A stretch of 64,000 bases of DNA from Clostridia bacterium (lineage in GTDB: Bacteria; Bacillota; Clostridia; Oscillospirales; CAG-272). The stretch covers positions 867 through 64,866 of the forward strand of contig JAFTBN010000062.1 of the NCBI GenBank assembly GCA_017455185.1. The letters are read 5' to 3'. The notes below the pieces were generated by a model. That model was not told the DNA's origin. It saw nothing but the letters and a program-made list of their open reading frames with translations, and did not search any database. Numbering within the stretch: position 1 is the first letter of the stretch; every line of letters begins with the position of its first letter. Both the position numbers and the translations under genes were made by a program. Of the stretch, positions 36,869 through 57,014 are shown in pieces.

Positions 36869-39800
36869 ATGAGCCAGAAGAAAAAACACAGGCATCAGGA
36901 TTTGAGCAGCGCCCGGGAATTGAAATCCCGCGTGGCGCAGGGCGGGCTTGCTCCGTCCGGCAGTTCTTCCGGAAGCGATTTGTCGCCTGAGGAGAAGCAC
37001 CGGATCGAGGATATCCTGGCCCGTCACGCCAACGCGGCAGGTCCTGCGCCGTCCCGGAAAGAGGAAGCGCCCGGGGAAGAGTCCGACGCCGGCATGGATT
37101 TGCCCTGGGAGGAATCCGAGCAGACCGATACGGAACCGACGGATGACACGGAACCGACGGACGACACGGAAACGGCATCGGAAGAGAAATTCTTCGGGGA
37201 AGAACCCGAAGCAGCCGAAGAGCCCGATGAGCCGGCCGAACCCGACGTTCCGCCGACTCACCGAAGCACGGCCAGCCGGATTGCCAGGGCGAGAATGGCC
37301 CGCATGGCGGGCGTTCAGATTTCCGAGTCCGAGCCGAAGGAATCGTCCGGGACGGACGTGTCCGAGACGGACGTGTCCGAGACGGACGTGCCCGAGACGG
37401 ACAGCGGGGATGGCGGGGAAGAAATCACCGAACCCGCGGCCAACGGACCGGATTGTGAAGAATACGATGACCTGATACAATCCGGGACCGGCCCTGAAGC
37501 CGAAGAGACAGAGGACTTGTCGGATGCCGGGCCCGAGGAGCCCGGGCCCGAAGAGATACCGGATGCGCAGGAAGGCGCAAAACCCGAACCGGATGAACCG
37601 CAGGACACAGCCGAAACGGTTGAACCGGCCAACACGGTTGAACCGGCCAACACAGTTGAACCGGTCAACACGACTGAACCGTTCCATCCGGCAGAAGCGG
37701 AATACGGGGAAGAAGAGGAAACGGCGCAGGAGAGCGACGGGTCCGAAACGCCGGTTGCCGGGGACGATTCCCCGGACGAAGAGTCTTCCGAATTCCCGGA
37801 CGGAGAGCAGGAACCTGACTCTGACGGAGAAGAGCCGGACGGGCAGGACGGGGAGGAACTCGACCCCGAGCAGGTCTGGACCCGGGAAAATGTGCCGGTA
37901 TACCGGGAGGAAAAACCGGGGAATGAGGAAACTTCGCTGCTCAGCGAAGATCCCCACGCGCAGGACGAGGCATCCCTGCAGGAAGCTTTCGGGCTGGACG
38001 CGGGACAGGGCAGGTCCCTGAGGAAGGGAAAGAGGGAGACCGCTTTCAGCTATCCCCGGGATCCGGCTGCCAAGGAACTGAGCGACGAAGACATATTGAT
38101 GATGAACAGCATCGGATTTGCCGCGGATTCGGTTCACGCCGCAGGCGCGGAACGGGTCGAACGCGTCCTGCACCGGGCCAGGAGCCAGAACAGACAGCCC
38201 GAACCGGAATCGTTCGTGTTCGGATATCCCGGAGAGGAATATTCGGGCAGACCGGAGCAGATTGAAAAGGCGCACGCCCGCTTTGACGCGAGCCGCAAAC
38301 GGCTCCGCTTGCGCGTGTTCTTTACGGTCGTGCTGCTTGTCCTGACCGCTTTCTTTGATTCGGTCAAACTGACGGGCCTTTTGGAATGGGCCGGAGAGTC
38401 GGGCGTGTCCGTCGAGCCGGTCTGGAACATCCTGATCAGCATGCAGTTCATGATTCTGGCGGCGCTTATATGCTACCGGAAAATCTGGGAGGGAATCAAG
38501 GGATTGCTTTTCTGCAAACCGATCCCCTGGTCGGTGCAGAGCGTCATGCTTCTGACAACGCTGGTATACGACGTCCTTTTGATGATTTTCCACGACGGAG
38601 ACGAGCTGCTGCTCTATCATGTTCCGGCTGTCGCGGCGCTGCTGTGGGGACTGGTCTGCGACTTCTTCACGCTGTACAAGGAACGCCTGTCGTTTGACGT
38701 GGCGACCGCAGACGGGGTCAAATGGGTGCTCAAGCCCCTGCCGCACCGGATGCGCGCCAGAGTGTACGACGACGGAAAGGTTCCGTATGTGCGGGATATG
38801 GACGAGGATTCGGTCAAACTCGGGGCGACCCGGACCTGGCGGGTCCGCAACTATTTTGCGCGCGCGGCCCGGTATCCGAAACATTACAAAGTGATTTTCT
38901 ATCTGCTGCTCGCGACGCTGCTTGTCGCCTTTTCGGGCAGCATGGCGGCCTATGGCGTGCAGATGAGCGCCGACCCGGCGACGGCGGGGATTGCGTCCCG
39001 TACGCTGCAGATTTTCATATTGCTGTGTCAGTTCGGACTGCCGGTCTCCCTTTTGATCGGGTATGTCTTCCCGCAGTGGAAGGCTTCCCGGTATCTGGCC
39101 GAGAAGGGCGCAACTGAAATCGGAAACTGTACGGGCGAGACTCTGGGCCGCACCAGATGGTCCAGGCAGGATGAACTGCTGACGGATTCCGACAAGAAGG
39201 TGAAACTGACTACGTCGGTCGTCTTCAGCGACCGGCTGATGTACAATTCCATGCTGGACCTCAAGCCTCGGCTGATCGGCGACGTTTCGCTCGTGGATTG
39301 TATGAACCTGGTTTCCGCCGCGGCCGCGGCCGTTGGGGGAACGCCCGAGTATTGGATCGATACGTCCTACCGCAACAACGACAAGGTCGTTCCGGGAACG
39401 GTGACCGATATGGCGCAGAACGGTTTCTGCTGCGACTGTGACGGAAGACACGTGATGGTCGGCGCCGGGCCGTACCTGCATGCCAAGGGCATTCTTGTGC
39501 CCGATACGCTGGCCCAATATGAACTGAAAACGGCCGAAAACACGGCCTGCGTGTATGTGGCGGTGGACGGACAGCTGAGTCTGATGCTCGAAGTCACCTA
39601 CGTGTCCGAGCCTACCTTCGAGCGGATTGTCTGGGATATGGCGTCCATGGGACTGCAGACCGCCATCTATTCGTACGACCCCAACCTTTCCGACCGGTTT
39701 CTGTCCAAGGCCCGGGTGGGCAAGGCAGTACCGGTGAAAGTGTACAAGCCTTTGTGGTTTGAAGAGGAATTCGTGTCGGAGGATGAGGACTGTGACATGC

Positions 39801-40156
39801 TGGCGCGCAGCGAACTGGGCCTGGCCGAGGTCATCAAGACTGACCGCCGGCTTGAGCGGTACAACCGCGGGGCGATTGTGCGGGGCTGGGTGTCCCTGTT
39901 CATCGGAGCCGGCCTGACGGTCGCGCTGACTCTGGCGGGACAGTTGTCGCTTTGCAACGGCCTGACCATCGCGGTGTATCAGAGCGCCTGGTGCCTGAGT
40001 TCCATTTTCCTGCACAGGGAGAATTTCGTCCGGCCTTCCCAGCGTGTCCGCGTCCAGCAAAAGGATTCCAGGCGGAAAAAGGCACAGAGCGGAGGACGCC
40101 GCGCGCAGGAAGAGGAGTACATCCGGCGTCACTCGAAAAAGAAAAACGGAAAATAA
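36869..40156 (+). CDS. Membrane protein with a ~470-aa acidic repeat-rich N-terminus and a degenerate P1B-type ATPase-like core
   Basis: The ATG follows GGAG. The N-terminal half is D/E/P/T-rich with in-frame tandem repeats. The C-terminal ~620 aa follow P-type ATPase order (paired TMs, a short A-domain remnant, TMs, a P/N-domain-like stretch VMVGAGPYLHAKGI...VYVAVDGQLSLMLEVTYVSEP...MGLQTAIYSYDPN, and terminal TMs). However, CPC reads CQF, DKTGT reads SDRLMY, TGDN reads SYDPN, and TGE and GDGxND are absent. Confidence 0.5.
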   Translation: MSQKKKHRHQDLSSARELKSRVAQGGLAPSGSSSGSDLSPEEKHRIEDILARHANAAGPAPSRKEEAPGEESDAGMDLPWEESEQTDTEPTDDTEPTDDTETASEEKFFGEEPEAAEEPDEPAEPDVPPTHRSTASRIARARMARMAGVQISESEPKESSGTDVSETDVSETDVPETDSGDGGEEITEPAANGPDCEEYDDLIQSGTGPEAEETEDLSDAGPEEPGPEEIPDAQEGAKPEPDEPQDTAETVEPANTVEPANTVEPVNTTEPFHPAEAEYGEEEETAQESDGSETPVAGDDSPDEESSEFPDGEQEPDSDGEEPDGQDGEELDPEQVWTRENVPVYREEKPGNEETSLLSEDPHAQDEASLQEAFGLDAGQGRSLRKGKRETAFSYPRDPAAKELSDEDILMMNSIGFAADSVHAAGAERVERVLHRARSQNRQPEPESFVFGYPGEEYSGRPEQIEKAHARFDASRKRLRLRVFFTVVLLVLTAFFDSVKLTGLLEWAGESGVSVEPVWNILISMQFMILAALICYRKIWEGIKGLLFCKPIPWSVQSVMLLTTLVYDVLLMIFHDGDELLLYHVPAVAALLWGLVCDFFTLYKERLSFDVATADGVKWVLKPLPHRMRARVYDDGKVPYVRDMDEDSVKLGATRTWRVRNYFARAARYPKHYKVIFYLLLATLLVAFSGSMAAYGVQMSADPATAGIASRTLQIFILLCQFGLPVSLLIGYVFPQWKASRYLAEKGATEIGNCTGETLGRTRWSRQDELLTDSDKKVKLTTSVVFSDRLMYNSMLDLKPRLIGDVSLVDCMNLVSAAAAAVGGTPEYWIDTSYRNNDKVVPGTVTDMAQNGFCCDCDGRHVMVGAGPYLHAKGILVPDTLAQYELKTAENTACVYVAVDGQLSLMLEVTYVSEPTFERIVWDMASMGLQTAIYSYDPNLSDRFLSKARVGKAVPVKVYKPLWFEEEFVSEDEDCDMLARSELGLAEVIKTDRRLERYNRGAIVRGWVSLFIGAGLTVALTLAGQLSLCNGLTIAVYQSAWCLSSIFLHRENFVRPSQRVRVQQKDSRRKKAQSGGRRAQEEEYIRRHSKKKNGK
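37130..37174 (+). repeat. In-frame 18-bp tandem repeat (about 2.5 copies; encodes TEPTDD)
   Basis: ACGGAACCGACGGATGAC at 37130-37147, ACGGAACCGACGGACGAC at 37148-37165, then a partial copy. Confidence 0.9.
37351..37402 (+). repeat. In-frame 15-bp tandem repeat (about 3.5 copies; encodes TDVSE)
   Basis: GACGGACGTGTCCGA twice (37351-37380), GACGGACGTGCCCGA (37381-37395), then GACGGAC. Confidence 0.9.
37616..37681 (+). repeat. In-frame 18-bp tandem repeat (about 3.7 copies; encodes TVEPAN)
   Basis: ACGGTTGAACCGGCCAAC twice (37616-37651), ACAGTTGAACCGGTCAAC (37652-37669), then ACGACTGAACCG. Confidence 0.9.
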
Positions 40157-46854: not shown

Positions 46855-46907
46855 CAAACAAAGCGTCAGGCGGCGCATCGGACGATGCGTTCCCTGACGC
46901 TTTTTTT
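46855..46907. terminator. Bidirectional terminator between the convergent thioesterase and ABC-F genes
   Basis: AGCGTCAGG (46862-46870) pairs with CCTGACGCT (46893-46901). There is an inner GCGCATCG/GATGCG hairpin, a TTTTTTT run on the plus side, and a T-rich run on the minus side. Confidence 0.8.
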
Positions 46908-48880
46908 CAGAGCTGGTCCAGCTCTTCCAGTTCCGCATAGGTCTGAAGGAGCAGGGCCTCTTTTTGGGTTCTTTCGGTGTCCAGTTCGGCCGCGCGCACG
47001 TAATCGGTCGCGGCGTCTCCGTTCAGTTCGGCCTCAATGGCCTCAAGCCGGTCTTCCAGCTCTTTGGCCTGCGCCTGAAGCCGGCTGATCCGGGTGGCCC
47101 TTTTGCGGGCTTCGGATGCTTCCTGCTTGCTGCGGAGGTAGTTTTCCTTGTTTGTGCTTTCTTTGGCTGCTTTTCCGGCGTCCCGGCGTCCTCCGCCCTG
47201 GACTCCCATTTCGGCCAGCCGCGCCTCGCAGTAACGGATGTACTCGGTGTAACCCTGACCCGGATGAACAACCGGGTAGTCCATCAGGTCCTTCCCGAAC
47301 GCCTCATCCGGCCGGATCTCCAGGATCCGTGTGGCCAGTTTGTCGATGAAATAGCGGTCGTGCGACACGGCGACGATGGTTCCGTCAAAATGGGCCAGCG
47401 CCTCTTCCAATGCTTCGCGCGAATCGATGTCCAGATGATTGGTCGGTTCGTCCAGAACCAGCAGATTCATCCGGGAAAGAATCAGTTTGGACAGGGTCAG
47501 ACGGGCCCGCTCTCCTCCCGAGAGCATGCGGACCGATTTAAAGACGTCGTCGCCTGTAAAACGGAAGGACGCCAGTGTGCTTCGGATTTCGGTCTCGGAC
47601 AGGGTCGGGTAGGCATTCCACAGTTCCTCCAGCACGGTCCGGCTCTCGTCCAGGTTCTGGTTTTCCTGATCGTAGTATCCGATCTCCACATTGGTTCCGT
47701 GCAGCACCGATCCTTCGGTCGGGGACAGACGGTGAATCAGCATTTTAATCAGGGTGGATTTTCCGCAGCCGTTCGCTCCGATGATCAGAACCCGCTCGGC
47801 TTTCTTGACCAGGAAGGAAAGATGGGAGAAAAGACTTCTTTCGCCGAACCGCATGCCGAGATCGCGGACAATGAGAACGTCGTTTCCGCTTTCAAGTCCC
47901 TGTGTGAAGGCCAGGCGGATGGATTTCGGGTCTTCCTTCGGTTTTTCCAGAAGGACCATTTTGTCCAGCATTTTCTGTCGGCTTTCGGCCGCAACGATGT
48001 TTCTTTGCCGGTTCCAGGCTCTTTGCTGGGCTATGTACGCCTCCTGACGCGCGATTTCCTTCTGCTGCTGCTCATAATGCTTCCGGGCCGTTTCGCGGTC
48101 CTGTGCGCGCTGCTGCAGCGTTCGGGTGTAATTGCCGTTGTAGAGTTTGGCCGCCCCGTATTGGATGGCCAGAGTCTTGTTGGTGACCCGGTCCAGAAAA
48201 TACCGGTCGTGCGACACGACGATGACGCACTTGTTGCGGTTGACCAGATAGTTTTCCAGCCAGGCGGTGGTGGCGATATCGAGATGGTTGGTCGGCTCAT
48301 CCAGAAGAAGGATGTCCGGGTCGCGCGCCATCTGCAGACCCAAGGCCAGACGGGTTCTTTGCCCGCCCGAGAGAATCCGGATGGGGCGGTTCATATCTTC
48401 TTCCGAAAAACCGAGGTTTTTCAGCATGGAAACGCAGCGGGAACGGAATTCGTGACCGCCGTCCCGGGTGTAGGACTGTTCAAGTTCGGCGTATTCCCGC
48501 GCCCGCTCCGCGTTGAGCAGCTGACTGGACGGATGTTTGTTGATTTCCTCCATCAGGGCGTGCATGCGCTCTTCCATGGCAAGAAACCGGGAGAAAACGC
48601 CGTACATCTGTTCCAGCGGCGTGCTCTCGTCCAGGTCTTTGAAATGCCGCAGCGCCCCGTCCTGCGTGACGATGGCCATGGTTTTGCCTTTGGCTACATA
48701 GAACGTGCCGGAGGTGGGTTCCACTTCGCCGGTCAGCATTCGGAGCAGGGAGGTTTTCCCGCAGCCGTTTACGCCGATCACTCCGAGTTTGTCGGACTCT
48801 TCCAGAGCGAAAGCAACTTTATTGAGGATGGTTTTGTCTCCGAAAGAGAGGGACAGATCGTTTACGGTTAAGACGAGCAT
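46907..48880 (-). CDS. ABC-F family ATPase (two ABC domains, no TM domain, C-terminal coiled coil)
   Basis: 657 aa. Two Walker A motifs (GVNGCGKTS, GANGCGKST), two LSGG signatures (LSGGQRTRL, LSGGERARL), and a charged C-terminal helix. Confidence 0.88.
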   Translation of the reverse strand: MLVLTVNDLSLSFGDKTILNKVAFALEESDKLGVIGVNGCGKTSLLRMLTGEVEPTSGTFYVAKGKTMAIVTQDGALRHFKDLDESTPLEQMYGVFSRFLAMEERMHALMEEINKHPSSQLLNAERAREYAELEQSYTRDGGHEFRSRCVSMLKNLGFSEEDMNRPIRILSGGQRTRLALGLQMARDPDILLLDEPTNHLDIATTAWLENYLVNRNKCVIVVSHDRYFLDRVTNKTLAIQYGAAKLYNGNYTRTLQQRAQDRETARKHYEQQQKEIARQEAYIAQQRAWNRQRNIVAAESRQKMLDKMVLLEKPKEDPKSIRLAFTQGLESGNDVLIVRDLGMRFGERSLFSHLSFLVKKAERVLIIGANGCGKSTLIKMLIHRLSPTEGSVLHGTNVEIGYYDQENQNLDESRTVLEELWNAYPTLSETEIRSTLASFRFTGDDVFKSVRMLSGGERARLTLSKLILSRMNLLVLDEPTNHLDIDSREALEEALAHFDGTIVAVSHDRYFIDKLATRILEIRPDEAFGKDLMDYPVVHPGQGYTEYIRYCEARLAEMGVQGGGRRDAGKAAKESTNKENYLRSKQEASEARKRATRISRLQAQAKELEDRLEAIEAELNGDAATDYVRAAELDTERTQKEALLLQTYAELEELDQL

Positions 48881-48903
48881 TTGGGCAGATTTCCTTTTTG
48901 ATA

Positions 48904-49641
48904 TCAGTAGTAGTCTTTTTCATCCAGGCTCTTGAGATACCGGATGCATCGGCCGACTTCCTCCAGACCCGTGGGCTTGCAGGTTTCGGATTCCACCACC
49001 ATGCGCAGGCCGAACCGGATGGCGGCGCGGCGGACTTCCTCAACGGGCGCGGTTCCTTCGCCCAGGGCAAAGCCCTGTCCCTGCGCATTTCCGTCCTTGA
49101 TGTGGATGACGCGCATACGGGGATACAGCCGGTCGAGCAGAGCGACCGGATCCAGTCCCGCATGGTAGGCCCAGTAGGTGTCGATTTCGAATTCCACGTC
49201 GGTCCGTTTTTCCAGTTCCTGATGGATCAGCGCTCCATAGGCGGTGGGATGGAATTCGTGCGAATGGTTGTGATAGCCAAGCGCGATTCCTTCCTTTTTC
49301 AGGATAGGCTGCACGTGGTTGATCAGGGCGATGAAGTCGTCCAGCTTTTCTTTGGTGGACAGGTCGGCGCCCGGTATGATGATGTTCTTGTTTCCGATTT
49401 CTTTGTGATAGCGGATGGTGGCGGGCAAAAGATCCCCTTTCAGTTCCTCCCATCCGGTGTGCGTGCCCGAAATCACGAGCCCGAAGCGGTCCAGCATCGA
49501 GGCGACTTCTTTGGCCGTGTGGTTGAAGAAACCGGCGAATTCGACGAAGCGGTATCCGAGATTTGCGACCCGGGCCAGCGTGTCTTCGAAGTGCTCGGGC
49601 ATGCTGTCGCGTACACTGTAGAGTTGAAGTCCGTAATTCAT
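48904..49641 (-). CDS. Sugar phosphate isomerase/epimerase (xylose-isomerase-like TIM barrel)
   Basis: 245 aa. Contains MNYGLQLYSVRD, GYRFVEFAG, LGYHNHSHEF, IDTYWA and IHIKD. Confidence 0.75.
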   Translation of the reverse strand: MNYGLQLYSVRDSMPEHFEDTLARVANLGYRFVEFAGFFNHTAKEVASMLDRFGLVISGTHTGWEELKGDLLPATIRYHKEIGNKNIIIPGADLSTKEKLDDFIALINHVQPILKKEGIALGYHNHSHEFHPTAYGALIHQELEKRTDVEFEIDTYWAYHAGLDPVALLDRLYPRMRVIHIKDGNAQGQGFALGEGTAPVEEVRRAAIRFGLRMVVESETCKPTGLEEVGRCIRYLKSLDEKDYY

Positions 49642-49653
49642 GATGATTCTCCT

Positions 49654-51336
49654 TTATGCGTTTGGTTCTGTTTCCAGTCTGACGTCGTCTATCCGGGCCC
49701 AGCCGGCCTTGGCCTTTCCGCGCTCGATGCCCAGCTGATAATTGCCGCTTTCGGGAACGGCAAAGGGCAGGGAAACGGTTTCCCAGGCGGTGTTTTGGAC
49801 CTGCTTGGACGCAATCAGTTCCTGGGTAAGCTGGTCTTTGACAAACAGACGGACCGGGTCCCCGCTGGTTTGCACATAGGCAGAGAGGGTGAAGGACCGC
49901 CCGCTTTCCAGGTACAGGCCTTCGTAGAGCGCGGCATCGCCCCGGTCCAGATCCGCGATGTACCCGCAGGCTTTCCCGTTCTGACCGACGGGCTGCGTGC
50001 ATATGCCTGTGCAGGCACGGCTGTTTTTCAGACGGCTGACCCACCAGATGTCGGAGCCGGCTTCGAAGTCGGCGTTCCGCAGTTCCTTCATCGAGGGATA
50101 GCCGTAGAAGTCGCTGACGGGCAGAGCCCGGAAGTTGTCCTGCATGGTATCCACGACGTTGTCGACGATGCGGATGTTCTTCATCGGGTTGGTGGAACCG
50201 TTGAAATCGAATCTTTGCGTTTCGGCGTTCCAGTTTCCGACCCAGGCTCCCATGGTCTGGAAGTAGTTGTCATGGACGTATATGTTTTCGACCTCCACAT
50301 CCTTCTGGTTCGGGTAGGAAGCGCCCCACATGATAAAGCAGAAGGCTTTGGTCGCGTCCCAGGTCACCTCGCAGTCATTGTGGTCGATTTCAATGTTTTC
50401 CGGCTTTTTCAGGTGCGTGTCGGGGGCCCAGACGCTTTTGCGCGGGTCGTCCCAGTCGGACGAGACGTAGATGCCGTCGTCCCCGGATTTGATTTTGCAT
50501 CCTGTGACGCGGATGTTCCGGCTGTTGGTCAGGTTGATTCCGTCCGTGCCGCCCCGGATGGAGAGAGAAGCGTCTACGTTTACGGCCCTGAACATGCCGT
50601 TCTGGCTGTTCTTGGCCGAGCAGCAGTAGGCCTGAAATCCTTCGAATTTCAGATCGGCGACCAGAAAATCCTCCACGGAGTACAGCCCGAGGGCAATCAT
50701 GGTCATCATGCAGTCCCCGCCTTCTCCTGCGCTGAGCCGGATGATTCCGTGTCCGGTCAGGGAAAAATCGGTGGTGCCTTCAGCGGCATAGAGAAAAGGA
50801 AAGTTGTAATAGGAGACGGCGTCCCACTCAATGTCAGTGCCCGTATACTGTCCCAGTTTCAGCCTTCTGGGCTCGAAATCGCGCAGCGGATCGACAAACT
50901 CGTCCGGATTTTCGCTCTGCCTGAGCATGGCCCCGTCCTCAAAGAAAAGGTGAACATGGCTTCGCAGCAGCAGATTGGAGGAGACAAACGTCCGGCCGGC
51001 AGGGAAACAGAGCCTGCCGCCGCCTTCGTGCCACAGGGAGTCTATGGCGGCCTGGATGGCAGCGCGGTCATTCGTTTCTCCGTCGCCCTTGGCACAGAAC
51101 GGTTCGTCGGTCACATAGACGGTTCGCCGCGGATGGCCTGGAGTCAATTTTGCCTCAATCCGGCCAAGCTTTTCAACCCGGGAGGCAGAGATCCCGGCTT
51201 TTTGCCCGGGGGATAGTTCCGAAAAAGCTTTTTTGACAGACAGAAAGGCGGATTGGTCTTCCGACGTGACGGCATAGGCGTCCCGGAGTTCGTCAATCCG
51301 CGTCTCCAAAAGGAGAAGGGAATCCCGGTCTTGCAT
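49654..51336 (-). CDS. GH28-like right-handed beta-helix protein with a C-terminal CBM-like jelly-roll; no signal peptide
   Basis: VYVTDEPFCAKGDGETNDRAAIQAAIDSL is a pectate-lyase-3/GH28 N-terminal cap. GGTDGINL and SGDDGIYV correspond to the NTDG and GDD catalytic strings. The canonical GHG string is not evident. The C-terminus NADFEAGSDIWW...GWARIDDVRLE is CBM_4_9-like. Confidence 0.6.
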   Translation of the reverse strand: MQDRDSLLLLETRIDELRDAYAVTSEDQSAFLSVKKAFSELSPGQKAGISASRVEKLGRIEAKLTPGHPRRTVYVTDEPFCAKGDGETNDRAAIQAAIDSLWHEGGGRLCFPAGRTFVSSNLLLRSHVHLFFEDGAMLRQSENPDEFVDPLRDFEPRRLKLGQYTGTDIEWDAVSYYNFPFLYAAEGTTDFSLTGHGIIRLSAGEGGDCMMTMIALGLYSVEDFLVADLKFEGFQAYCCSAKNSQNGMFRAVNVDASLSIRGGTDGINLTNSRNIRVTGCKIKSGDDGIYVSSDWDDPRKSVWAPDTHLKKPENIEIDHNDCEVTWDATKAFCFIMWGASYPNQKDVEVENIYVHDNYFQTMGAWVGNWNAETQRFDFNGSTNPMKNIRIVDNVVDTMQDNFRALPVSDFYGYPSMKELRNADFEAGSDIWWVSRLKNSRACTGICTQPVGQNGKACGYIADLDRGDAALYEGLYLESGRSFTLSAYVQTSGDPVRLFVKDQLTQELIASKQVQNTAWETVSLPFAVPESGNYQLGIERGKAKAGWARIDDVRLETEPNA

Positions 51337-51351
51337 GGTGCAACCTCCTGT

Positions 51352-53538
51352 TTAATCGGTCTTGGAAAGGAACCGGTCCACAATTTGCTGACGGTAATCC
51401 TTGGAAAGGGAGGCGAAAAAGGCGGAGTATCCGGTCACGCGTACCATCAGGTCCGGGTGGGTCGAAGGGTCTTTGTGGGCCTCCAGCAGGGTTTCCTTGG
51501 TCAGGCAGTTCAAGTTGATCAGGGTTCCGCCCATGTGGTTGTGGGTGTGAATCAGGGCCATCAGCGCTTCAATGCCGCCTTCGCGGTCCAGCATTTCCGC
51601 ATCAATATCCAGATGGAGCGGTGCAGAGTTGCCGAAGCCGGGCTGAGCCAAAGCTACGGCGTTGGCTTTTAACGTCGGCGAAAACGTGTTGATGCCGTTT
51701 GCAAACCCGGGATCCGGTTCGTTCGAGTGCGAAATGGGTTCGTAATTCTTGCGGCCGTTCGGCGTGGCAGGCAGGCGCGAACCGTATTCGCCGATGGCGC
51801 CGTGCGAAAAGAGCCCGGGAATGATTTTCAGGTGATGCTTCGGCGTGCCTTCGTCCCGGCAGGCATGCACGTAAAAGTCCCGGATGCGGAGAGCCCAGGG
51901 CTCGGAGGGGCTGTCGGGTGCTCCAAAGCGGTTGATGTTCTTCATCATCAGCCGGACGGATTCGTATCCTTCGTAATTTGCGTCCAGCGCGGCATACAAT
52001 TCGTCCCAGGTCAGCCGTTTTTCTTCTTCGATCCGCTGTTCCATCGCGCCGAAGGAGTCCGCAACGGTCGCAAGGGCGATGCCGTCGATGTTGAAATTCA
52101 GGATGTCCACGCCGCCTTCCGAACAGTTCAGTCCCCGTTCAATCGGGCCGTGCATGAGAAGGTTGTAAACCATTTCCGGGCGATTGCGGCCCATCATTTC
52201 ATAGTGCTTGTCGTAGCCGATCTTGATGGAATCCACGATGATCTGGGTGTGTTTGCAGAACAGCTGGAAGAGCCGCTGCGTACTCTTTTGCGGTTCGTCC
52301 CGCATGTCCTGAAGTGCCCACCAGAGCGCAAATCCCATGTTGGCTCTCGTAACGTCCTGCAGAGGATATTCGTGCCCGCATACGCAGCACCAGTTGCATC
52401 CGACTTTGATGCGCTGGCGGGCAAGTCCCTCGGGATAGCCTGAACGCACATAGCCCTGTTCAATGCCGATGTTGCATGAGTAATCCGCACCCGTTCCGTC
52501 CCGGAGAGTGTATTCCAGGGACCGCCGCAGCAGATCCGGGTTGAGTTTGTCGCTGACCCGGACGGCGATGTTGACCGGGATTTTGATGGCGTGCATCGCA
52601 TCCAGAACCAGAAAACTCATCCGGCTGGTCATGTCGCGGGATCCGTCAGGGGTCAGGCCCGCAATCTGGGAATAGTGGGTATCGTTGAAGAAGAGGCTCG
52701 CAATAAACCAGACGGCCATTTCATCGGTCAGAATGCCGGCTTCCTTGTCCCGCTCGTAATACGGACGGAGTTTTTCGTCCAGCTGGTCCAGCGCGCCGCC
52801 GACGTAATACATCCGGTCGACCGACTGGAAATGGGCCAGAAACTGACAGGCCTCCCGGAGTGTGCGGGGCGGATTGTCCACCAGCCATTCGTTCATCCGG
52901 GCAATCTGGAGCAGATTGGTGCGGGTGTCCGGATCGGTTTCCTGCAAGGCAAGCATTCTTGCGTGAGAAGCGATTCCCCGGACCCAGTTCCGGATGCCCA
53001 GAACCAGATCTTCCTCGCCGTCGTAGAAAGCGGGATCCTCGGGGGCATTCAGTTCCCGGTAGCGGCGGATTTTTTTCAGAATGCCGCCCCAGCCGAGTTC
53101 CAGACCGATGTTGATATCACCGGCGCAATGGTTCATGCCTCCGAACCCGGGATAGGTATGGTATTTTTGCCAGCAGGCCCGGACTTCAGGCGGCACGTCG
53201 TCTTCGGGCGGAATCCCAATTTTCGCGAAATCCGTCAGCTGTCCGATCCAGGCGCCGCCCAAGGCGCTGCTTGGGTTGACGTATTGCGGGATTTCTTCCA
53301 GATACTTCCGGAAGTTCTTTCCGATGGAGCGATACCCGCAGATCAGTCCGTCCGGACGGTCTGAGACCGGTTCGAAGGTAAAATCCGGGAAATAAACAAA
53401 CCCCCAGTCGTCGAAGTCAAGATGATCGAAGACCTTCATTTTGATCTGGTTCATTTTCAGCTTATCCCGGTGCAAACGGTCGATACGTTCCTTGTACAGG
53501 GGACTGAGTACGGTCGGGGTGGAATCAATCTGTTTCAT
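51352..53538 (-). CDS. Glycyl radical enzyme (PFL2/dehydratase-like superfamily), substrate unassigned
   Basis: 728 aa. The C-terminal glycyl-radical motif is LMVRVTGYSAFF (G703). A Cys-containing loop, KVGCNWCCVCGHE (C381, C384, C385, C387), lies about 320 residues upstream, matching the Cys-Gly spacing of known GREs. PATPNGRK is a typical family string. The gene is adjacent to an activase. Confidence 0.85.
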   Translation of the reverse strand: MKQIDSTPTVLSPLYKERIDRLHRDKLKMNQIKMKVFDHLDFDDWGFVYFPDFTFEPVSDRPDGLICGYRSIGKNFRKYLEEIPQYVNPSSALGGAWIGQLTDFAKIGIPPEDDVPPEVRACWQKYHTYPGFGGMNHCAGDINIGLELGWGGILKKIRRYRELNAPEDPAFYDGEEDLVLGIRNWVRGIASHARMLALQETDPDTRTNLLQIARMNEWLVDNPPRTLREACQFLAHFQSVDRMYYVGGALDQLDEKLRPYYERDKEAGILTDEMAVWFIASLFFNDTHYSQIAGLTPDGSRDMTSRMSFLVLDAMHAIKIPVNIAVRVSDKLNPDLLRRSLEYTLRDGTGADYSCNIGIEQGYVRSGYPEGLARQRIKVGCNWCCVCGHEYPLQDVTRANMGFALWWALQDMRDEPQKSTQRLFQLFCKHTQIIVDSIKIGYDKHYEMMGRNRPEMVYNLLMHGPIERGLNCSEGGVDILNFNIDGIALATVADSFGAMEQRIEEEKRLTWDELYAALDANYEGYESVRLMMKNINRFGAPDSPSEPWALRIRDFYVHACRDEGTPKHHLKIIPGLFSHGAIGEYGSRLPATPNGRKNYEPISHSNEPDPGFANGINTFSPTLKANAVALAQPGFGNSAPLHLDIDAEMLDREGGIEALMALIHTHNHMGGTLINLNCLTKETLLEAHKDPSTHPDLMVRVTGYSAFFASLSKDYRQQIVDRFLSKTD

Positions 53539-53562
53539 GTTCAGCTCCTTTTTGTCGGTGAT

Positions 53563-54456
53563 TCAGCTTTTGAAGGCGGGAAGTCCGGCATCCAGAAACG
53601 GACGCAGGGCCTTTTGCATGATTTCATCGGTTGGAACCTCTTCGTCTTTGCAGGCGTTGGGCAAATCCAGGGCTTCGTATTTTGACAATCCCAGTTTGTG
53701 GTAGGGAAGAATTTCTATTTTTTCCGGGCGGATGTCGGCTAAAAGAGCCGCTATGGCCGGCATCTCTCCAAGATTTTTGGAAGGAATCAGGGGAACGCGG
53801 ATAAAGATGCGGGCGCCGGAGCCGGAAAGAAAGCGGAGATTTTGCAGGATTCTCTCATTGGACACGCCGGTCAGCGCCTTGTGAATCTGCGGGTCTGCTG
53901 CCTTGACGTCAAACAGAAAAAGGTCGGTGTAGGGAAGAACGTCTTCAAAGGCTTCCCGTTCTACGTTTCCGGCTGTGTCAACCGCGGTATGGATCCCCTG
54001 TTTTTTGCACCGCTGCAGCAACTCCAGCAAAAACGGTGTCTGAATCATGCATTCTCCGCCCGAAAAGGTGACCCCTCCGCCCGACCGTTCGTAATAGGGT
54101 TTGTCGGACAGAATCTGTTTTTCCACATAGTCGGCTTCCACGTCGCGTCCGACTTTCACCAAAGCGCCGGCATAGCAGGTTTGGGCGCAGCGCATGCAAC
54201 GGATGCATTTGTCGCGGTCGATGACGTGTTTCCCGGCCTCGGTCATCCGGTGCGCTCCCTGCGGGCAGGTAAGAAAGCATTGTCCGCACCCGATGCATTT
54301 TTGTGCGTTGAATTCCAGAACGTCTCCCCGGGGAATGGATTCCGGATTGTGGCACCAGATGCAATGCAGATTGCATCCTTTAAAGAAGACAGTCGTACGG
54401 ATGCCGGGTCCGTCATGCACTGAAAAGCGCTGTATGTTGAAAATCCTGCCGGTCAT
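53563..54456 (-). CDS. Glycyl-radical enzyme activating protein (radical SAM, with two auxiliary ferredoxin-type clusters)
   Basis: MTGRIFNIQRFSVHDGPGIRTTVFFKGCNLHCIWCHNPE (CxxxCxxC), plus CIGCGQCFLTCP and CIRCMRCAQTC. I prefer the ATG at 54456, which follows GGAGGAAG, to the track's 54471. Confidence 0.9.
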   Translation of the reverse strand: MTGRIFNIQRFSVHDGPGIRTTVFFKGCNLHCIWCHNPESIPRGDVLEFNAQKCIGCGQCFLTCPQGAHRMTEAGKHVIDRDKCIRCMRCAQTCYAGALVKVGRDVEADYVEKQILSDKPYYERSGGGVTFSGGECMIQTPFLLELLQRCKKQGIHTAVDTAGNVEREAFEDVLPYTDLFLFDVKAADPQIHKALTGVSNERILQNLRFLSGSGARIFIRVPLIPSKNLGEMPAIAALLADIRPEKIEILPYHKLGLSKYEALDLPNACKDEEVPTDEIMQKALRPFLDAGLPAFKS

Positions 54457-54488
54457 GGTGTCTTCCTCCATGTGACTTGGTTTGCCTC

Positions 54489-54518
54489 ATTTTACCACCG
54501 TTTCAGAAGCAGAGTCAA
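54489..54518 (-). promoter_or_regulatory. Promoter for the GRE operon
   Basis: Minus strand: TTGACT (54518-54513), an 18-nt spacer, and TGgTAAAAT (-10 at 54494-54489). It lies about 30 nt upstream of the activase start. Confidence 0.6.
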
Positions 54519-54628
54519 GGCAAAAGCGGAAAAAGGAGTCCGCCTACCGTATCTTGATACCAACCCTGACACGAATGGATGCTTCCATGTCCCTGAAAGC
54601 AGAATATATAACATAAATATAATGAGTT

Positions 54629-54645
54629 CAGATTCAATGAATCTG
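54629..54645. promoter_or_regulatory. 17-bp perfect palindrome in an AT-rich patch upstream of the GRE operon promoter (candidate operator)
   Basis: CAGATTCA-A-TGAATCTG at 54629-54645, about 110 bp upstream of the predicted -35. Confidence 0.35.
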
Positions 54646-54776
54646 GAGCAAAAAAAGGGACCTGTCCATACAGAATCCCTTATGATACATGTCGGATTGC
54701 TTTTCTCTTTCTGCCGGCTGACGGCAGAAAGGTCCGGGTCAGAAACCGGCGTCTTTTGCACGATGAAATGCCCCGC

Positions 54777-55244
54777 TTAGCGTGATTCCTTGCAAGGCTT
54801 GTCGATGATTTTATAGAGGAGCCTGTACATGGTGGCGGCTTCTTCCGGGGACAAGGATTCCATGACGCAAGACCCGACACACAGCGGAATGTCCGCCAGT
54901 CTGGATTCCATTTCTTTTCCGGCGTCGGTCAGATTGACCAGTACGGAGCGTTCATCCTCCGGATCCCGTGTGCGCCGGATCAGTCCTTCTTTTTCCATGG
55001 TTTTCAGCATGGGGGTCAGGGTGCCTGTATCCAGGAGCAGTTTCTGCGCGATCGATCCCACTTTCTGTCCGTCTTCTTCCCATAGGGTCATCAGGCAAAT
55101 GTATTGCGTATAGGTCAGACCGAACGGTTTCAGAAGGGGCGTATACAGGGATGTGATTTTTCTGGAACAGGCATACAGAGGGAAGCAAAGCTGATTCTTG
55201 AGCCGGATGGGCCGCGACTCCTGATTGGATATTGGCTGACTCAT
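54777..55244 (-). CDS. ohrR: MarR-family organic-hydroperoxide sensor/repressor OhrR
   Basis: 155 aa. NQLCFPLYACSRKITSLYTPLL...LTYTQYICLMTLWE...LDTGTLTPMLKTMEKEGLIRRTRDPEDERSVLVNLT closely parallels B. subtilis OhrR, including the sensing Cys in QLCF. Extra C-terminal cysteines (CVGSC) suggest the 2-Cys type. Confidence 0.85.
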   Translation of the reverse strand: MSQPISNQESRPIRLKNQLCFPLYACSRKITSLYTPLLKPFGLTYTQYICLMTLWEEDGQKVGSIAQKLLLDTGTLTPMLKTMEKEGLIRRTRDPEDERSVLVNLTDAGKEMESRLADIPLCVGSCVMESLSPEEAATMYRLLYKIIDKPCKESR

Positions 55245-55249
55245 GACGC

Positions 55250-55561
55250 TCAGATGTTGGACTCAATCCAGCTTCTCAGCTGCGGTTCGGGCATAAAGCC
55301 GACGTGACGGGATACAACCTGTCCGTCTTTTACCAGGAGAAGGGTAGGGATGCTCTGAACGTCGAATGAACCGGCCAGTTCGGGGTTGTCGTCTACGTCG
55401 ACGTTGAAGAAGGTCAACTTGTCTTTCATCTCGTCGGACAGACGCTCGACGATAGGGGCGATCATGCGGCAGGGGCCGCACCAGGTAGCGGAAAAATCGA
55501 CCAGGGCAGCCGAACTGTCCTGAATGTTCTTGAAATCATCGTTTTGAATTCTGATAACCAT
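55250..55561 (-). CDS. trxA: Thioredoxin
   Basis: 103 aa. Contains the WCGPC active site and the FNVDVDDNPELA...SIPTLLL pattern. Confidence 0.93.
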   Translation of the reverse strand: MVIRIQNDDFKNIQDSSAALVDFSATWCGPCRMIAPIVERLSDEMKDKLTFFNVDVDDNPELAGSFDVQSIPTLLLVKDGQVVSRHVGFMPEPQLRSWIESNI

Positions 55562-55588
55562 AATGAAACTCCTGTTTGTTTGTTGGTT

Positions 55589-56464
55589 TTATGTTTGGGG
55601 ATGGTCCAGCCTGTCCAGGTAGGAAACGGCCGAAAGGGCGGCGACGTTTCCTTCTCCGGCGGCTTTTACGTACTGATAAGGTTTGCCCGTGCAGTCTCCG
55701 GCGGCGAAACAGCCCGGAATGTTGGTGCTCATGGAGCGGTCCGTGACGATGTGGGCGCCTTCGGTCGCAAGTCCGGGGACCAGCTGGCCGGGGGAAATGC
55801 TGTCGCGCAGAACGAAGATGCAGTCTGCGTACAGGGTTTGGTCCGCCGCCTGCAGGAGCATTTTCTTTTCCTGCGCCAACCGTTCAATCTTTTCCGGCCG
55901 CAGCGGAAGTACCGTTACGCTCTGCGGCAAATGGACCGGCGTCGAATATTGGGGCAGGTACGTGACGGAGGAGCACACTTCGGACAGGAACCGGGCTTCC
56001 TCTTCCTCTTTCTTGGAGTAGCCGATGACCAGAACCGGACGTCCTCTGTACAGGGAGGCGTCGCAGGTGGCGCAGTAACTGACGCCGCGTCCGACGTTTT
56101 CCTCTTCGCCCGGAATGGTTTTTCCGGCGCTGACTCCGGTCGCCAGAATCAGGCAGCGGGCCTCATACAGATCCGGACCGGACTGCAGGGCAAAATAGTC
56201 TCCCATGGAATAGATGCTGGTGATTTTTACATCGGTCACGGGAATGTCCATTTCTTCGAGCTGCTTGCGGAACGCCTGCTGCAGTTCGATGCCGGTGACG
56301 TTGGAGATACCGGGATAGTTGCGGATCCGGTGTTCTCCTCCGATCTTCGTACTCAGGCTGCCGGAGCCGAAGAGCATAAGACTCTTGTTTCGGTTCTTGG
56401 CGGTCAGGGCCGCGGAAATGCCCGCGGCTCCCGTCCCGACAATCGCAATGTCCACGCGGTCCAT
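55589..56464 (-). CDS. Thioredoxin-reductase-like flavoprotein lacking recognisable NADPH-binding motifs
   Basis: The FAD motif IVGTGAAGISAAL, the redox CATC (SYCATCDASLY) and the C-terminal FAAGDC are all present. Where TrxB has GGGNSAxEEA and HRRxxxR, this protein reads VIGYSKKEEEEARFL and YLPQYSTPVH. Confidence 0.75.
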   Translation of the reverse strand: MDRVDIAIVGTGAAGISAALTAKNRNKSLMLFGSGSLSTKIGGEHRIRNYPGISNVTGIELQQAFRKQLEEMDIPVTDVKITSIYSMGDYFALQSGPDLYEARCLILATGVSAGKTIPGEEENVGRGVSYCATCDASLYRGRPVLVIGYSKKEEEEARFLSEVCSSVTYLPQYSTPVHLPQSVTVLPLRPEKIERLAQEKKMLLQAADQTLYADCIFVLRDSISPGQLVPGLATEGAHIVTDRSMSTNIPGCFAAGDCTGKPYQYVKAAGEGNVAALSAVSYLDRLDHPQT

Positions 56465-56465
56465 A

Positions 56466-57014
56466 TTACAGCAGACTTTCTACGCACTTGCGTACGTCGT
56501 CCATCGAGGCGGTAGGCTCAAAACGGGCCACCACTTCGCCCTGGCGGTTGACGATGAATTTCGTGAAATTCCATTTGATGTCCGGGTTGTCCTTGTAATG
56601 CTTGTCCATCATCTTGGCCACGGCCTTCATGGACAGCGCCCTCGGACCTTTGCCGAATCCTTCAAAGCCTTTCTGGCTCTTCAGGAAGGCATACAGGGGA
56701 AGGGCGTTTTCGCCGTTGACGTCCGACTTTTTCATCTGGGGGAACCGGGTGTGATATTTCAAAGTGCAGAAATCGTGGATTTCCTCATCGGATTCCGGCG
56801 CCTGGTTCGCGAACTGATTGCAGGGAATGTCCACAATCTCGAGTCCCTTGTCATGCAGGTCTTCGTACATCTTTTCCAGGGGTTCATAGTGCGGTGTGAA
56901 TCCGCAGCCGGTTGCCGTATTGACTACGATGACCACTTTTCCTTCGAAATCCCGCATGGACTGTTCTTCCCCTTTGGTGGTGGGAACGGAATAATCATAA
57001 AAACTGGCGCTCAT
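56466..57014 (-). CDS. Glutathione-peroxidase-family thiol peroxidase (Cys type)
   Basis: 182 aa. Contains VVIVVNTATGCGFTPHY, FPCNQF-type (here IPCNQFANQ) and WNFTKFIV. Confidence 0.88.
   Translation of the reverse strand: MSASFYDYSVPTTKGEEQSMRDFEGKVVIVVNTATGCGFTPHYEPLEKMYEDLHDKGLEIVDIPCNQFANQAPESDEEIHDFCTLKYHTRFPQMKKSDVNGENALPLYAFLKSQKGFEGFGKGPRALSMKAVAKMMDKHYKDNPDIKWNFTKFIVNRQGEVVARFEPTASMDDVRKCVESLL

Follow-up and report, generated by a model that had tools for sequence, protein, structure and literature searches.

The window, which is the whole stretch of 64,000 nucleotides of DNA that was analysed, carries five co-directional genes on its minus strand, whose coordinates and order agree with the original prediction. 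The first encodes an activase (53563 to 54471; Radical_SAM and two Fer4 motifs), and it is followed by genes for a glycyl radical enzyme (GRE) of 728 amino acids (51352 to 53538; PFL-like, 2e-67, and Gly_radical, 7.5e-13), a GH28-like protein of 560 amino acids (49654 to 51336; weak above-threshold Pfam matches), a xylose-isomerase-like TIM-barrel protein of 245 amino acids (48904 to 49641; AP_endonuc_2, 8.9e-16) and an ABC-F protein (46907 to 48880; NF000355, 464 bits, cut-off 380). Successive gaps measure 24, 15, 12 and 23 nucleotides, and a Shine-Dalgarno-like site precedes each of the five start codons. Shell, transporter and regulator genes are absent from inside the cluster, as had been proposed. 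A MarR/OhrR-like gene, the last of a GPx-TrxR-Trx-MarR unit, lies 305 nucleotides upstream, and the intervening gap contains a sigma-70-like promoter candidate (54489 to 54518, minus strand; TTGACT-18-TAAAAT with a TG-extended -10) that matches the consensus at 10 of 12 positions. The predicted site is thus present, but it is a consensus match only and such sites are no more common in this region than in shuffled sequences (3 observed versus 3.3 expected), and therefore the candidate constitutes weak evidence.

The activase scores 339 bits with TIGR02494 (cut-off 174) and is a radical SAM protein with a CX3CX2C motif spanning C33-C40 and a pair of ferredoxin-like 4Fe-4S motifs. Its true start is probably the second ATG, at 54456, which is preceded by GGAGGA 7 nucleotides upstream and which yields the same 297 amino acid product as an independent gene call. 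This cognate activase is encoded 24 nucleotides upstream of the GRE, which is a member of the PFL-like glycyl radical enzyme superfamily. The GRE matches PF02901 with 228.7 bits and PF01228 with 49.4 bits, both exceeding the gathering scores, and its AlphaFold2 model (pTM 0.90) gives TMq values of 0.73 to 0.84 to all PFL2-type structures in Foldseek. The radical glycine G703 is located within RVTGY and the thiyl cysteine C381 within G-C-N-W383, and the model, which is a confident one, places each at the tip of its own predicted beta-hairpin, with C381 between two short strands. C381 does not vary among 44 family members or across all 76 representatives. The sequence R700-V-T-G703-Y-SAFFAS-L-SKDY-R-QQ-I-VD-R fits the GRE fingerprint RVxG[FWY]x6-8[FL]x4Qx2[IV]x2R (PMC13450708) except at the Q position, where an R that never varies within the family precedes a Q.

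This GRE had been described as atypical, and the comparison with characterised families bears this out. It falls below every NCBIfam equivalog cut-off, scoring 38 to 159 bits where 994 to 1150 are called for, as with the models for HpsG (159 against 1000), HypD (154 against 1100), CutC (146 against 1050), PRK09983 (PflD-type; 132 against 1109), HpfG (123 against 1000), IAD (88.6 against 1100) and HPAD (83.8 against 1150). Its identity to every solved GRE is between 14 and 25%. The top PDB sequence match is CutC (1e-45, approximately 25% identity), BSS and MASS are among the more distant matches, and Foldseek finds the model equidistant from all PFL2-type structures (14-21% identity). The protein is indeed shorter than PFL2-type enzymes, although by 50-120 amino acids (solved enzymes have 776-850) rather than the 80-120 originally given. 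A decarboxylase or X-succinate synthase identity was considered and rejected, since the IAD and HPAD scores are far below cut-off and neither the window nor the common neighbours in related loci include small-subunit genes.

According to a 2026 review, all GRE eliminases and isomerases keep a C-x-E motif whose glutamate hydrogen-bonds or deprotonates a substrate hydroxyl, and the GRE classes listed there do not include the CxW type (PMC13450708). The corresponding loop in the window GRE reads C381-N382-W383. Judged from sequence, this GRE clusters with no characterised family and its clade is uncharacterised.

The CxW clade is large and its members are roughly 700-760 amino acids long. Its signature on the Cys loop is G-C-x-W...PG-x-E-Y, wherein the tryptophan at C+2 is invariant across the whole clade; among the 44 family members G-C-N-W is invariant and the consensus is GCNWTAIPG. 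C-x-W is present in all full-length representatives scoring about 185 bits or more, and the classical GREs scoring below this value have GCVE-type or other Cys loops. The additional cysteines of the window GRE are not conserved, and the family keeps a single cysteine and no CC pair. Clade-specific conserved residues are W150, W383, E390, Y391, D395, E455 and T702. Two tryptophans, two glutamates, one aspartate and one tyrosine make up the clade-specific set that we count towards a sugar link. In one distant member (P0204), activase and GRE are naturally fused.

There are 79 related genomic loci, and in about 70 of them an activase homologue is located directly upstream of the GRE. These pairs are distributed across Clostridia and are also present in Spirochaetaceae, Hydrogenedentota and Chloroflexota MAGs. 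The conserved unit is this two-gene activase and GRE module only. Neither the GH28-like gene nor the TIM gene of the window resides beside the GRE in any of the 79 loci, the sole exception being a 32%-identical TIM barrel located 2.4 kb away in L031. Both genes are likewise missing from GRE relatives at 78-86% identity, including L080, whose GRE is 86% identical. Similarly, the four genes do not come together in any of five places examined from the TIM side, and only one of 83 loci with GH28-like homologues (L087) has a GRE, which is of a different type. The four genes are thus not found together in genomes outside this lineage, and a neighbourhood that is not conserved, which the original proposal had named as grounds for its refutation, is what is observed for the GH28-like and TIM genes.

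CxW GREs recur within gene loci for carbohydrate utilisation. At least 59 of the 79 loci include sugar ABC transporters, cytoplasmic glycosidases (GH38, GH2, GH106-like, GtaA-like) or Gfo/Idh/MocA oxidoreductases, and sugar-type neighbours occur in 47 of the 57 loci that span at least 12 kb. A census of same-strand neighbours (n = 173) includes BPD_transp_1 (27), Gfo/Idh/MocA (about 15), GH38 (14), SBP (9) and GtaA-like (5) proteins, in addition to GH2, GH95, GH59, GH32 and AP_endonuc_2. Gene contexts follow the GRE subclades, and those with sugar genes recur in independent subclades and in relatives with only 37-38% identity. Eisenbergiella tayi has three paralogous GRE loci, each with its own transporter; one distant clade member belongs to an ABC operon of the CUT2 monosaccharide type that also encodes a ROK protein, and another adjoins a Gfo/Idh/MocA gene. 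Some of this association is expected by chance, given that sugar genes are common in the carrier genomes.

Some observations weigh against a carbohydrate role, among them the lack of a transporter or regulator in the window cluster. Contexts within the subclade of the window GRE are mixed, with an alpha/beta hydrolase in L001 and GH2 in L002. L080 has an upstream 453 amino acid protein without an assigned family, and a formate/nitrite-type channel is encoded 3.6 kb away on the opposite strand. Clostridium termitidis carries a member of this GRE family (L012), yet only one of its seven PFL paralogues is detectably expressed on cellulose, xylan, cellobiose or xylose (PMC4877739). Overall, the general proposal that a carbohydrate-derived substrate undergoes a radical step not yet described is supported at the family level, while its more specific form, a four-gene operon for pectin or uronates, is not.

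The pair might instead act on a non-carbohydrate substrate (amino-acid-derived, methylated or aromatic), with its neighbours, including the GH28-like gene, present by chance adjacency. Consistent with this, about a quarter of the loci (some 20 of 79) have no recognisable sugar gene, genes of the URO-D type (methyltransferase-like) flank the GRE in L013, L032 and L033 and lie near P0200, and the contexts in the window and L080 are mostly housekeeping. The missing C-x-E glutamate is also common to non-eliminase classes. However, same-strand, tightly linked sugar ABC, GH38, Gfo/Idh/MocA and ROK genes recur in independent subclades, context follows the GRE phylogeny, and the top neighbour families contain neither small subunits nor aromatic or amino-acid catabolic genes. 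We therefore consider a non-carbohydrate substrate unlikely.

The GH28-like protein matches Pect-lyase_RHGA_epim with 32.4 bits (cut-off 27) and Glyco_hydro_28 with 28.4 bits (cut-off 22.9), the latter across residues 208-295 only, whereas CBM_4_9 (22.3 bits) is below its cut-off of 25.9. NCBIfam galacturonidase and rhamnogalacturonidase models give 34-56 bits against cut-offs of 500-800. In its AlphaFold model (pLDDT 94.6), a right-handed beta-helix is flanked by three helices at the N-terminus and by a CBM-like beta-sandwich at the C-terminus, and the best superposing structures are GH28 exo-polygalacturonases. The residues D265 and D286-D287 do not vary among 49 homologues and correspond to NDGID and GDD of 5olp and 3jur in the alignment, such that the protein combines the beta-helix with the catalytic-type Asp and Asp-Asp residues. 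Further motifs of GH28 enzymes are G/S-H-G and R-I-K; H355-D356 is invariant in this family, and equivalents of GHG or RIK were not located.

The beta-helix and the D...DD carboxylates are common to this protein and the GH28 exo-polygalacturonases, galacturonidases and rhamnogalacturonidases. However, identity to these enzymes is only 15-18%, and the protein has an extra N-terminal helical segment and a C-terminal CBM-like domain. Because the similarity is remote, uronate specificity is not readable from the protein. No signal peptide is found, and the protein is predicted to be cytoplasmic. Its gene begins 15 nucleotides downstream of the GRE with its own Shine-Dalgarno site, and its family is small (76 clusters), with some members carrying dockerin or DUF4082. 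The protein is plausibly a lineage-specific feeder glycosidase for the GRE. Nothing points specifically to the uronate or pectin link that had been suggested, and the glycosidase partners of the GREs elsewhere are most commonly GH38 alpha-mannosidases, GH2, GH106-like and GtaA-like proteins.

The best solved relatives of the TIM-barrel protein (8tcs, 8tcd and 8tct; 1e-15) are labelled only as 'sugar phosphate isomerase' or 'xylose isomerase-like TIM barrel'. Its orthologues (62-73% identity) occur singly in housekeeping surroundings without any link to sugar genes, and for this reason the TIM gene is probably a bystander. Tight spacing is uninformative here because the ABC-F gene is packed equally close. 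The best explanation takes both genes to be part of the genomic backbone, with no more than their strand in common with the module.

These observations bear on the possibility that the activase, GRE, GH28-like and TIM genes form one dedicated operon for a radical pathway acting on a pectin-, uronate- or deoxy-sugar-derived substrate. The gaps of 12-24 nucleotides, the Shine-Dalgarno site before each gene and the lack of any terminator-like site between the genes on the coding strand favour this arrangement. So do the best sequence relatives of the GH28-like protein, which are galacturonidases and rhamnogalacturonidases, the TIM barrels of the same Pfam family that adjoin the GRE in L038 and L063 and lie near it in L031, and the GH28-like homologue beside a different GRE in L087. 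On the other hand, the set is limited to the lineage of the window, and contigs with the exact GRE share the window neighbourhood. Moreover, GREs with 78-86% identity occur without the GH28-like and TIM genes, 82 of 83 GH28-like loci have no GRE, the TIM orthologues are solitary, and the GH28 similarity is remote. The four-gene operon is already largely refuted by this non-conservation, and we consider it quite improbable.

That the GRE is a pyruvate formate-lyase or a standard PFL2-type diol or glycerol dehydratase is scarcely credible despite its database name 'pyruvate-formate lyase', a fold marginally closest to 1,2-propanediol dehydratase and the formate/nitrite-type channel near the GRE in L080, since it scores 37.7 bits with TIGR01255 (PFL; cut-off 994) and 170 bits with TIGR01774 (PFL2/3 subfamily; cut-off 678), its family has one conserved cysteine rather than a CC pair, and it lacks the C+2 glutamate present in every characterised dehydratase, eliminase and isomerase (PMC13450708). 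PflB and TdcE share its superfamily and database name, but the alignment is confined to the C-terminal glycyl radical domain and the window GRE has no Cys-Cys pair.

The best sequence and structure matches are the GRE 1,2-eliminases (1,2-propanediol and glycerol dehydratases, CutC, HypD, IslA/IseG and HpsG), with propanediol dehydratase 5i2g reaching TMq 0.84. They share a single catalytic cysteine and activases with two extra Fe-S motifs. However, identity is 17-25%, the C-x-E glutamate is missing from the window GRE, and a segment of about 20-30 residues after the 'FFND' position of the classical enzymes is absent from its family. In addition, microcompartment genes are absent, and the neighbours encode glycosidases and sugar transporters.

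YbiW and PflD are the sole characterised GREs that act on sugars (PMC13450708). They are isomerases of 'anhydroglycolysis' that break the C-O bond in the ring of 1,5-anhydroglucitol-6-P and 1,5-anhydromannitol-6-P, and they resemble the window GRE in their PFL-like fold (TMq 0.78-0.82), a dedicated activase and, on both sides of the comparison, a sugar-uptake context. They differ in sequence (18-20% identity), in length (765-810 versus 728 amino acids) and in keeping C-x-E in place of the C-N-W of the window GRE. They act on sugar phosphates, which arrive through a PTS, whereas the ABC importers of CxW loci would deliver unphosphorylated sugars.

Another resemblance is to the oxidation-elimination '3-keto-glycoside' pathways, which employ Gfo/Idh/MocA oxidoreductases and xylose-isomerase-like TIM-barrel lyases. 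Examples include levoglucosan LgdA-C, C-glycoside DgpABC and a gut pathway of broad specificity (bioRxiv 10.1101/2024.03.25.586180). Their accessory families (Gfo/Idh/MocA pairs, AP_endonuc_2 TIM barrels and ThuA) recur beside CxW GREs. However, these pathways do not include a GRE and the window has no Gfo/Idh/MocA gene. We take this resemblance as a lead only.

We give an even chance to the reading in which the activase-GRE module catalyses a radical step on a carbohydrate-derived small molecule, with the GH28-like gene a lineage-specific addition and the TIM and ABC-F genes part of the backbone. The activase would install a radical on G703, which would relay it to C381, and the resulting thiyl radical would take hydrogen from a substrate the size of a monosaccharide, polyol, anhydro-sugar or keto-sugar. 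This compound may be imported by an ABC transporter or released in the cytoplasm by exo-glycosidases. Conservation suggests that W383 and W150 might serve as stacking platforms for the sugar, and that E390, E455 or D395 could replace the missing C-x-E base. The outcome would be a redox-neutral rearrangement or cleavage of a C-O (possibly C-C) bond, and a deoxy-keto product would pass to glycolysis via Gfo/Idh/MocA oxidoreductases, kinases and aldolases. In the window, the module would have landed between housekeeping genes. The activase-GRE pair belongs to a large unstudied branch of GREs that adjoins sugar-uptake and sugar-splitting genes in many anaerobes.

There are five ORFs oriented in the same direction on the minus strand between positions 46907 and 54518. 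The first encodes a radical SAM activase (53563-54471) that carries Radical_SAM and ferredoxin-type motifs and scores 339 bits against TIGR02494, for which the cut-off is 174. The first cysteine of its CX3CX2C motif is C33. The second ATG of this gene, at position 54456, is the likelier start codon because GGAGGA is located 7 nucleotides upstream, and because this choice agrees with an independent gene call of 297 amino acids. Located downstream are the genes for a glycyl radical enzyme (GRE) of 728 amino acids (51352-53538; PFL-like 2e-67, Gly_radical 7.5e-13), a GH28-like protein of 560 amino acids (49654-51336) with weak matches to Pect-lyase_RHGA_epim, Glyco_hydro_28 and CBM_4_9, a 245 amino acid AP_endonuc_2 TIM barrel (48904-49641) and an ABC-F protein (46907-48880). 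The gaps from activase through ABC-F are 24, 15, 12 and 23 nucleotides, and a Shine-Dalgarno-like site precedes all five start codons. The gene set, order, strand and tight spacing are therefore as described in the original prediction. The promoter-like hexamers at 54518-54489 are also present, but the match count of this region is no higher than that of shuffled sequence. An Rfam scan of positions 48800-54900, with E values up to 1, revealed no riboswitch and no leader.

The remainder of the window carries housekeeping genes, for example those for a fumarase-type lyase, AlaRS, RecD2, MreB and Mfd. A GPx-TrxR-Trx-MarR/OhrR-like unit (54777-57014, minus strand) lies on the same strand and ends 305 nucleotides upstream of the oxygen-sensitive GRE module, and the proximity of this thiol-peroxide stress unit is probably a coincidence. 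A single ORF of 2310 amino acids without a Pfam match (48-6980, plus strand) occupies a stretch of 37% GC (positions 1 to ~7000), outside of which GC content is 50-61%. It may encode a giant protein acquired horizontally. Another ORF without a Pfam match encodes 1095 amino acids (36869-40156, plus strand) and lies in a segment with an unusually high AT skew (0.27).

The GRE is set apart from the characterised families, as had been proposed. Its bit scores against the NCBIfam equivalog models fall far below the cut-offs, with 38 versus 994 for PFL, 146 versus 1050 for CutC, 154 versus 1100 for HypD, 159 versus 1000 for HpsG, 132 versus 1109 for the PflD type, 89 versus 1100 for IAD and 84 versus 1150 for HPAD. 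Even the broad PFL2/3 subfamily model yields only 170 bits versus a cut-off of 678. The closest solved relative by sequence is CutC (1e-45), at about 25% identity. The predicted model is confident (pLDDT 88.5, pTM 0.90), and a Foldseek comparison finds PFL2-type structures all equidistant from it (TMq 0.73-0.84, identity 14-21%), such that no class is singled out. The radical glycine G703, within RVTGY, and the catalytic C381 are both conserved, and the model predicts that each is located at the tip of its own hairpin. Identities as a pyruvate formate-lyase, diol dehydratase, decarboxylase or X-succinate synthase are ruled out by motif and score.

The loop around the catalytic cysteine reads G380-C381-N382-W383, and thus has Trp at the second position after Cys. 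Every C-O, C-N and C-S eliminase, and each of the three isomerases, keeps C-x-E at this site, where the Glu binds a substrate hydroxyl (June 2026 review, PMC13450708). The same review includes only two sugar-acting GREs, YbiW and PflD, both of which have C-x-E, and its listing contains no clade that resembles the short GREs with C-x-W (PMC13450708). These CxW enzymes therefore differ from every known eliminase and isomerase in that they lack the catalytic Glu.

There are more than 1000 matches to the window GRE in a word-indexed search, and the part of the clade nearest to this GRE comprises more than 1000 clusters at 90% identity. The best 120 matches are 61-100% identical, are 695-764 amino acids long, come mostly from MAGs of Clostridia, Oscillospiraceae and Lachnospiraceae, and are named 'pyruvate-formate lyase'. 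The clade includes dozens of clusters at 50% identity and is widespread among Clostridia of the rumen, gut and digesters. When 1.84 billion representatives were searched exhaustively, there were 3797 matches, wherein full-length representatives fall into steps of 794-751 bits (51-52% identity), 538-418 bits (36-42%) and 318-185 bits (27-32%), and classical GREs of 760-850 amino acids score ~160-140 bits. Every full-length representative at or above ~185 bits shares the signature G/x-C-x-W-x3-PG-x-E-Y and a length of roughly 700-760 amino acids; under ~185 bits the loops are GCVE-like or other. Seven residues (W150, W383, E390, Y391, D395, E455 and T702) are present in at least 90% of CxW enzymes and in no more than 20% of the GREs outside this clade. 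From sequence, this aromatic and carboxylate set would fit what is expected of a sugar pocket whose base has been relocated. The window GRE thus belongs to a clade that is large, uncharacterised and distinct in mechanism.

Several arrangements of CxW genes deviate from a single activase and GRE pair. A distant GRE representative (P0204, L171:2644-5802) is a naturally fused activase and CxW-type GRE of 1052 amino acids, and a Gfo/Idh/MocA gene is located immediately upstream. In two MAGs (L077:8001-12417 and L078:3612-6912), tandem CxW paralogues, ~52% identical to the window GRE, are found behind one activase gene. In another locus (L073:4244-10187), the CxW pair is immediately preceded by an additional, distant pair of activase and GRE. 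Eisenbergiella tayi DSM 26961 has three paralogous CxW loci (L039, L059 and L061), each with its own ABC transporter and regulator, and two of the three are ~20 kb apart on the same scaffold.

The original prediction viewed activase, GRE, GH28-like protein and TIM barrel as one operon for a carbohydrate-derived substrate, possibly related to uronic acids or deoxy-sugars. One genome per species was scanned, which gave 79 GRE loci, and adjacency in these was counted by tblastn with the window proteins. The activase is directly upstream of the GRE in ~70 of these, and homologues of the window GH28-like and TIM proteins are found beside the GRE in none of the 79, so that a conserved four-gene operon is not borne out. 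Partial exceptions are a 32%-identical TIM protein 2.4 kb downstream in one locus (L031) and a weak, distant beta-helix match in another (L074). The contexts of close GRE relatives differ from that of the window and among themselves, featuring an alpha/beta hydrolase downstream (L001), a GH2 enzyme upstream (L002) or an uncharacterised protein of 525 amino acids (L003). In L080, whose GRE is 86% identical, an uncharacterised 453 amino acid protein precedes activase and GRE, and the next genes lie on the other strand. This locus also carries a Form_Nir_trans channel gene (L080:3643-4347, minus strand), 3.6 kb from the GRE and on the opposite strand. As the sole pointer to formate-lyase-like chemistry, this single case is a hint.

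The opposite approach gave a matching picture. For the GH28-like family, no CxW GRE, activase or TIM homologue is found in 80 metagenomic loci or in three contexts that were looked up, and one locus (L087) has a GRE of another type. Orthologues of the TIM protein (62-73% identity) are abundant and solitary, and reside in housekeeping surroundings, with either a cation-efflux gene before them or infC-rpmI-rplT next to them. Co-occurrence checked from the GRE, GH28-like and TIM sides thus confines the four-gene order to contigs with this exact GRE, where the neighbourhood is the same as in the window. We conclude that the conserved unit is activase plus GRE, that the adjacency of the GH28-like gene is specific to this lineage, and that the TIM and ABC-F genes belong to the genomic backbone.

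A different gene association emerges when the ORFs of the 79 loci are clustered and annotated with Pfam. A census of 173 closely spaced neighbours on the same strand includes 27 ABC sugar-type permeases, ~15 Gfo/Idh/MocA oxidoreductases that are usually paired, 14 GH38 alpha-mannosidases, 9 solute-binding proteins and 5 GtaA-hairpin/DUF5127/DUF4964 proteins, with smaller numbers of GH2, GH95, GH59, GH32, ThuA, DHDPS-type and AP_endonuc_2 proteins. By raw counts, such sugar genes occur in at least 59 of the 79 loci, a minimum since the count is restricted to clusters with several members, and in 47 of the 57 loci of at least 12 kb. About one quarter of loci lack sugar genes, and URO-D-type genes are found beside a few clade members. 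Locus contexts follow the GRE tree. The Lachnospiraceae branch has a GntR-type regulator, two permeases, a lipoprotein solute-binding protein, a 759 amino acid protein, activase, GRE and GH38; the Anaerocolumna branch has AraC, activase, GRE and two Gfo/Idh/MocA genes; the Ruminiclostridium branch has GH2, a regulator, activase, GRE and a GtaA-like protein; and a fourth branch has ThuA and a LacZ-type GH2. Relatives at 37-38% identity keep this theme, including the Gfo/Idh/MocA-associated P0204 and another distant representative, P0202, whose surrounding operon encodes a CUT2 monosaccharide-type ABC system (Peripla_BP_1, BPD_transp_2, double ABC_tran) and has a ROK protein gene after it. None of the glycosidase partners carries a signal peptide.

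The ~759 amino acid protein is cytoplasmic and highly conserved. It is present at L054:2145-4424 and in 15 other loci, and is encoded directly upstream of the activase in 13 GRE loci of the GH38 type. It has no Pfam match at E = 0.1 and no PDB relative at E values up to 1, and could belong to a novel family of glycosidases or act as a partner of the GRE. A GH106-like protein (cluster 20) is found downstream in three loci, although this link is faint (Pfam E 0.043; PDB 6q2f, 1e-7).

A literature search for GREs associated with mannosidases, glycoside hydrolases or carbohydrate loci found no relevant report. In C. termitidis, only one of seven PFL paralogues, the canonical PFL, is detectably expressed on cellulose, xylan, cellobiose and xylose (PMC4877739). 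This species has a member of the CxW family (L012), and the pattern is consistent with a specialised, uninduced locus and does not pinpoint a substrate.

In the AlphaFold model of the GH28-like protein (pLDDT 94.6), a right-handed beta-helix is preceded by three N-terminal helices and followed by a C-terminal beta-sandwich. The best superposing structures are GH28 exo-polygalacturonases (3jur, 2uve and 5olp), and the CBM 8xmz matches the C-terminal domain. The family is small, with 76 clusters, some members of which carry a dockerin or DUF4082, and an exact-sequence look-up of the window protein returned no record. The window protein lacks a signal peptide. It may supply the GRE substrate, as suggested by its position and the family-wide pairing of these GREs with a cytoplasmic glycosidase rather than by conservation. 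At L087:1181-9923, a 48%-identical homologue lies beside a 705 amino acid GRE with a C-V-E loop that is 24% identical to the window GRE. The locus also encodes a DUF5054 protein, an aldolase of the DeoC type and a PfkB kinase, a layout reminiscent of the way in which a kinase and an aldolase follow YbiW and PflD. No activase was detected near this GRE.

The sole NCBIfam match of the window TIM barrel is IolE, at 38.5 bits versus a cut-off of 290. A literature search on the TIM-barrel structures 8TCD, 8TCS and 8TCT turned up no paper. The IolE match, together with the occurrence of Gfo/Idh/MocA and IolE-like TIM neighbours, led us to consider substrates of the inositol or 1,5-anhydro-sugar type for the GRE.

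In the reaction that we envisage, the activase would form the G703 radical and C381 would relay it to the substrate. This would most likely be a carbohydrate-derived small molecule, either imported or freed inside the cell by exo-glycosidases. The CUT2/ROK context suggests a substrate of monosaccharide size, and the recurrent pairing of these GREs with Gfo/Idh/MocA enzymes suggests a keto or deoxy-keto sugar as substrate or product. The second residue after Cys is not Glu, and therefore textbook Glu-assisted elimination is not possible. Judging from the conserved residues, the enzyme might cleave or rearrange a C-O (or C-C) bond by use of another carboxylate (E390, E455 or D395) and Trp stacking. 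We consider the carbohydrate-module reading as a whole to have about an even chance of being correct, and no specific chemistry rises above unlikely. The original prediction is thus partly supported, in that the GRE comes from an uncharacterised clade with a robust link to sugar utilisation, but the four genes do not form a conserved operon for pectin or uronates.

A more speculative proposal, which we rate as rather doubtful, is that the short CxW GREs are a new mechanistic class that acts directly on sugars or glycosides in Gram-positive glycan-utilisation loci. Perhaps a Trp platform and a relocated carboxylate replace the Glu of C-x-E, and glycan-specialised paralogues serve as 'radical CAZymes' that break a bond unreachable by hydrolases. 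Candidates under this proposal would be cleavage of a ring or ether C-O bond, cleavage of a C-glycosidic bond, and deoxygenation.

GREs carry out chemically hard, redox-neutral reactions in anaerobes, and newly assigned clades have each opened a new gut or environmental pathway, as for choline, hydroxyproline, sulfonates and anhydro-sugars. Whole GRE clades are still without an assignment (PMC13450708). The CxW clade is a good target in this regard and is open to experiment now, since its cultured carriers include Eisenbergiella tayi, Anaerocolumna spp., Ruminiclostridium cellobioparum, Robinsoniella peoriensis and Scatolibacter rhodanostii. Assignment of its reaction would correct thousands of 'pyruvate formate-lyase' annotations, and would probably reveal a new step in anaerobic carbohydrate catabolism.
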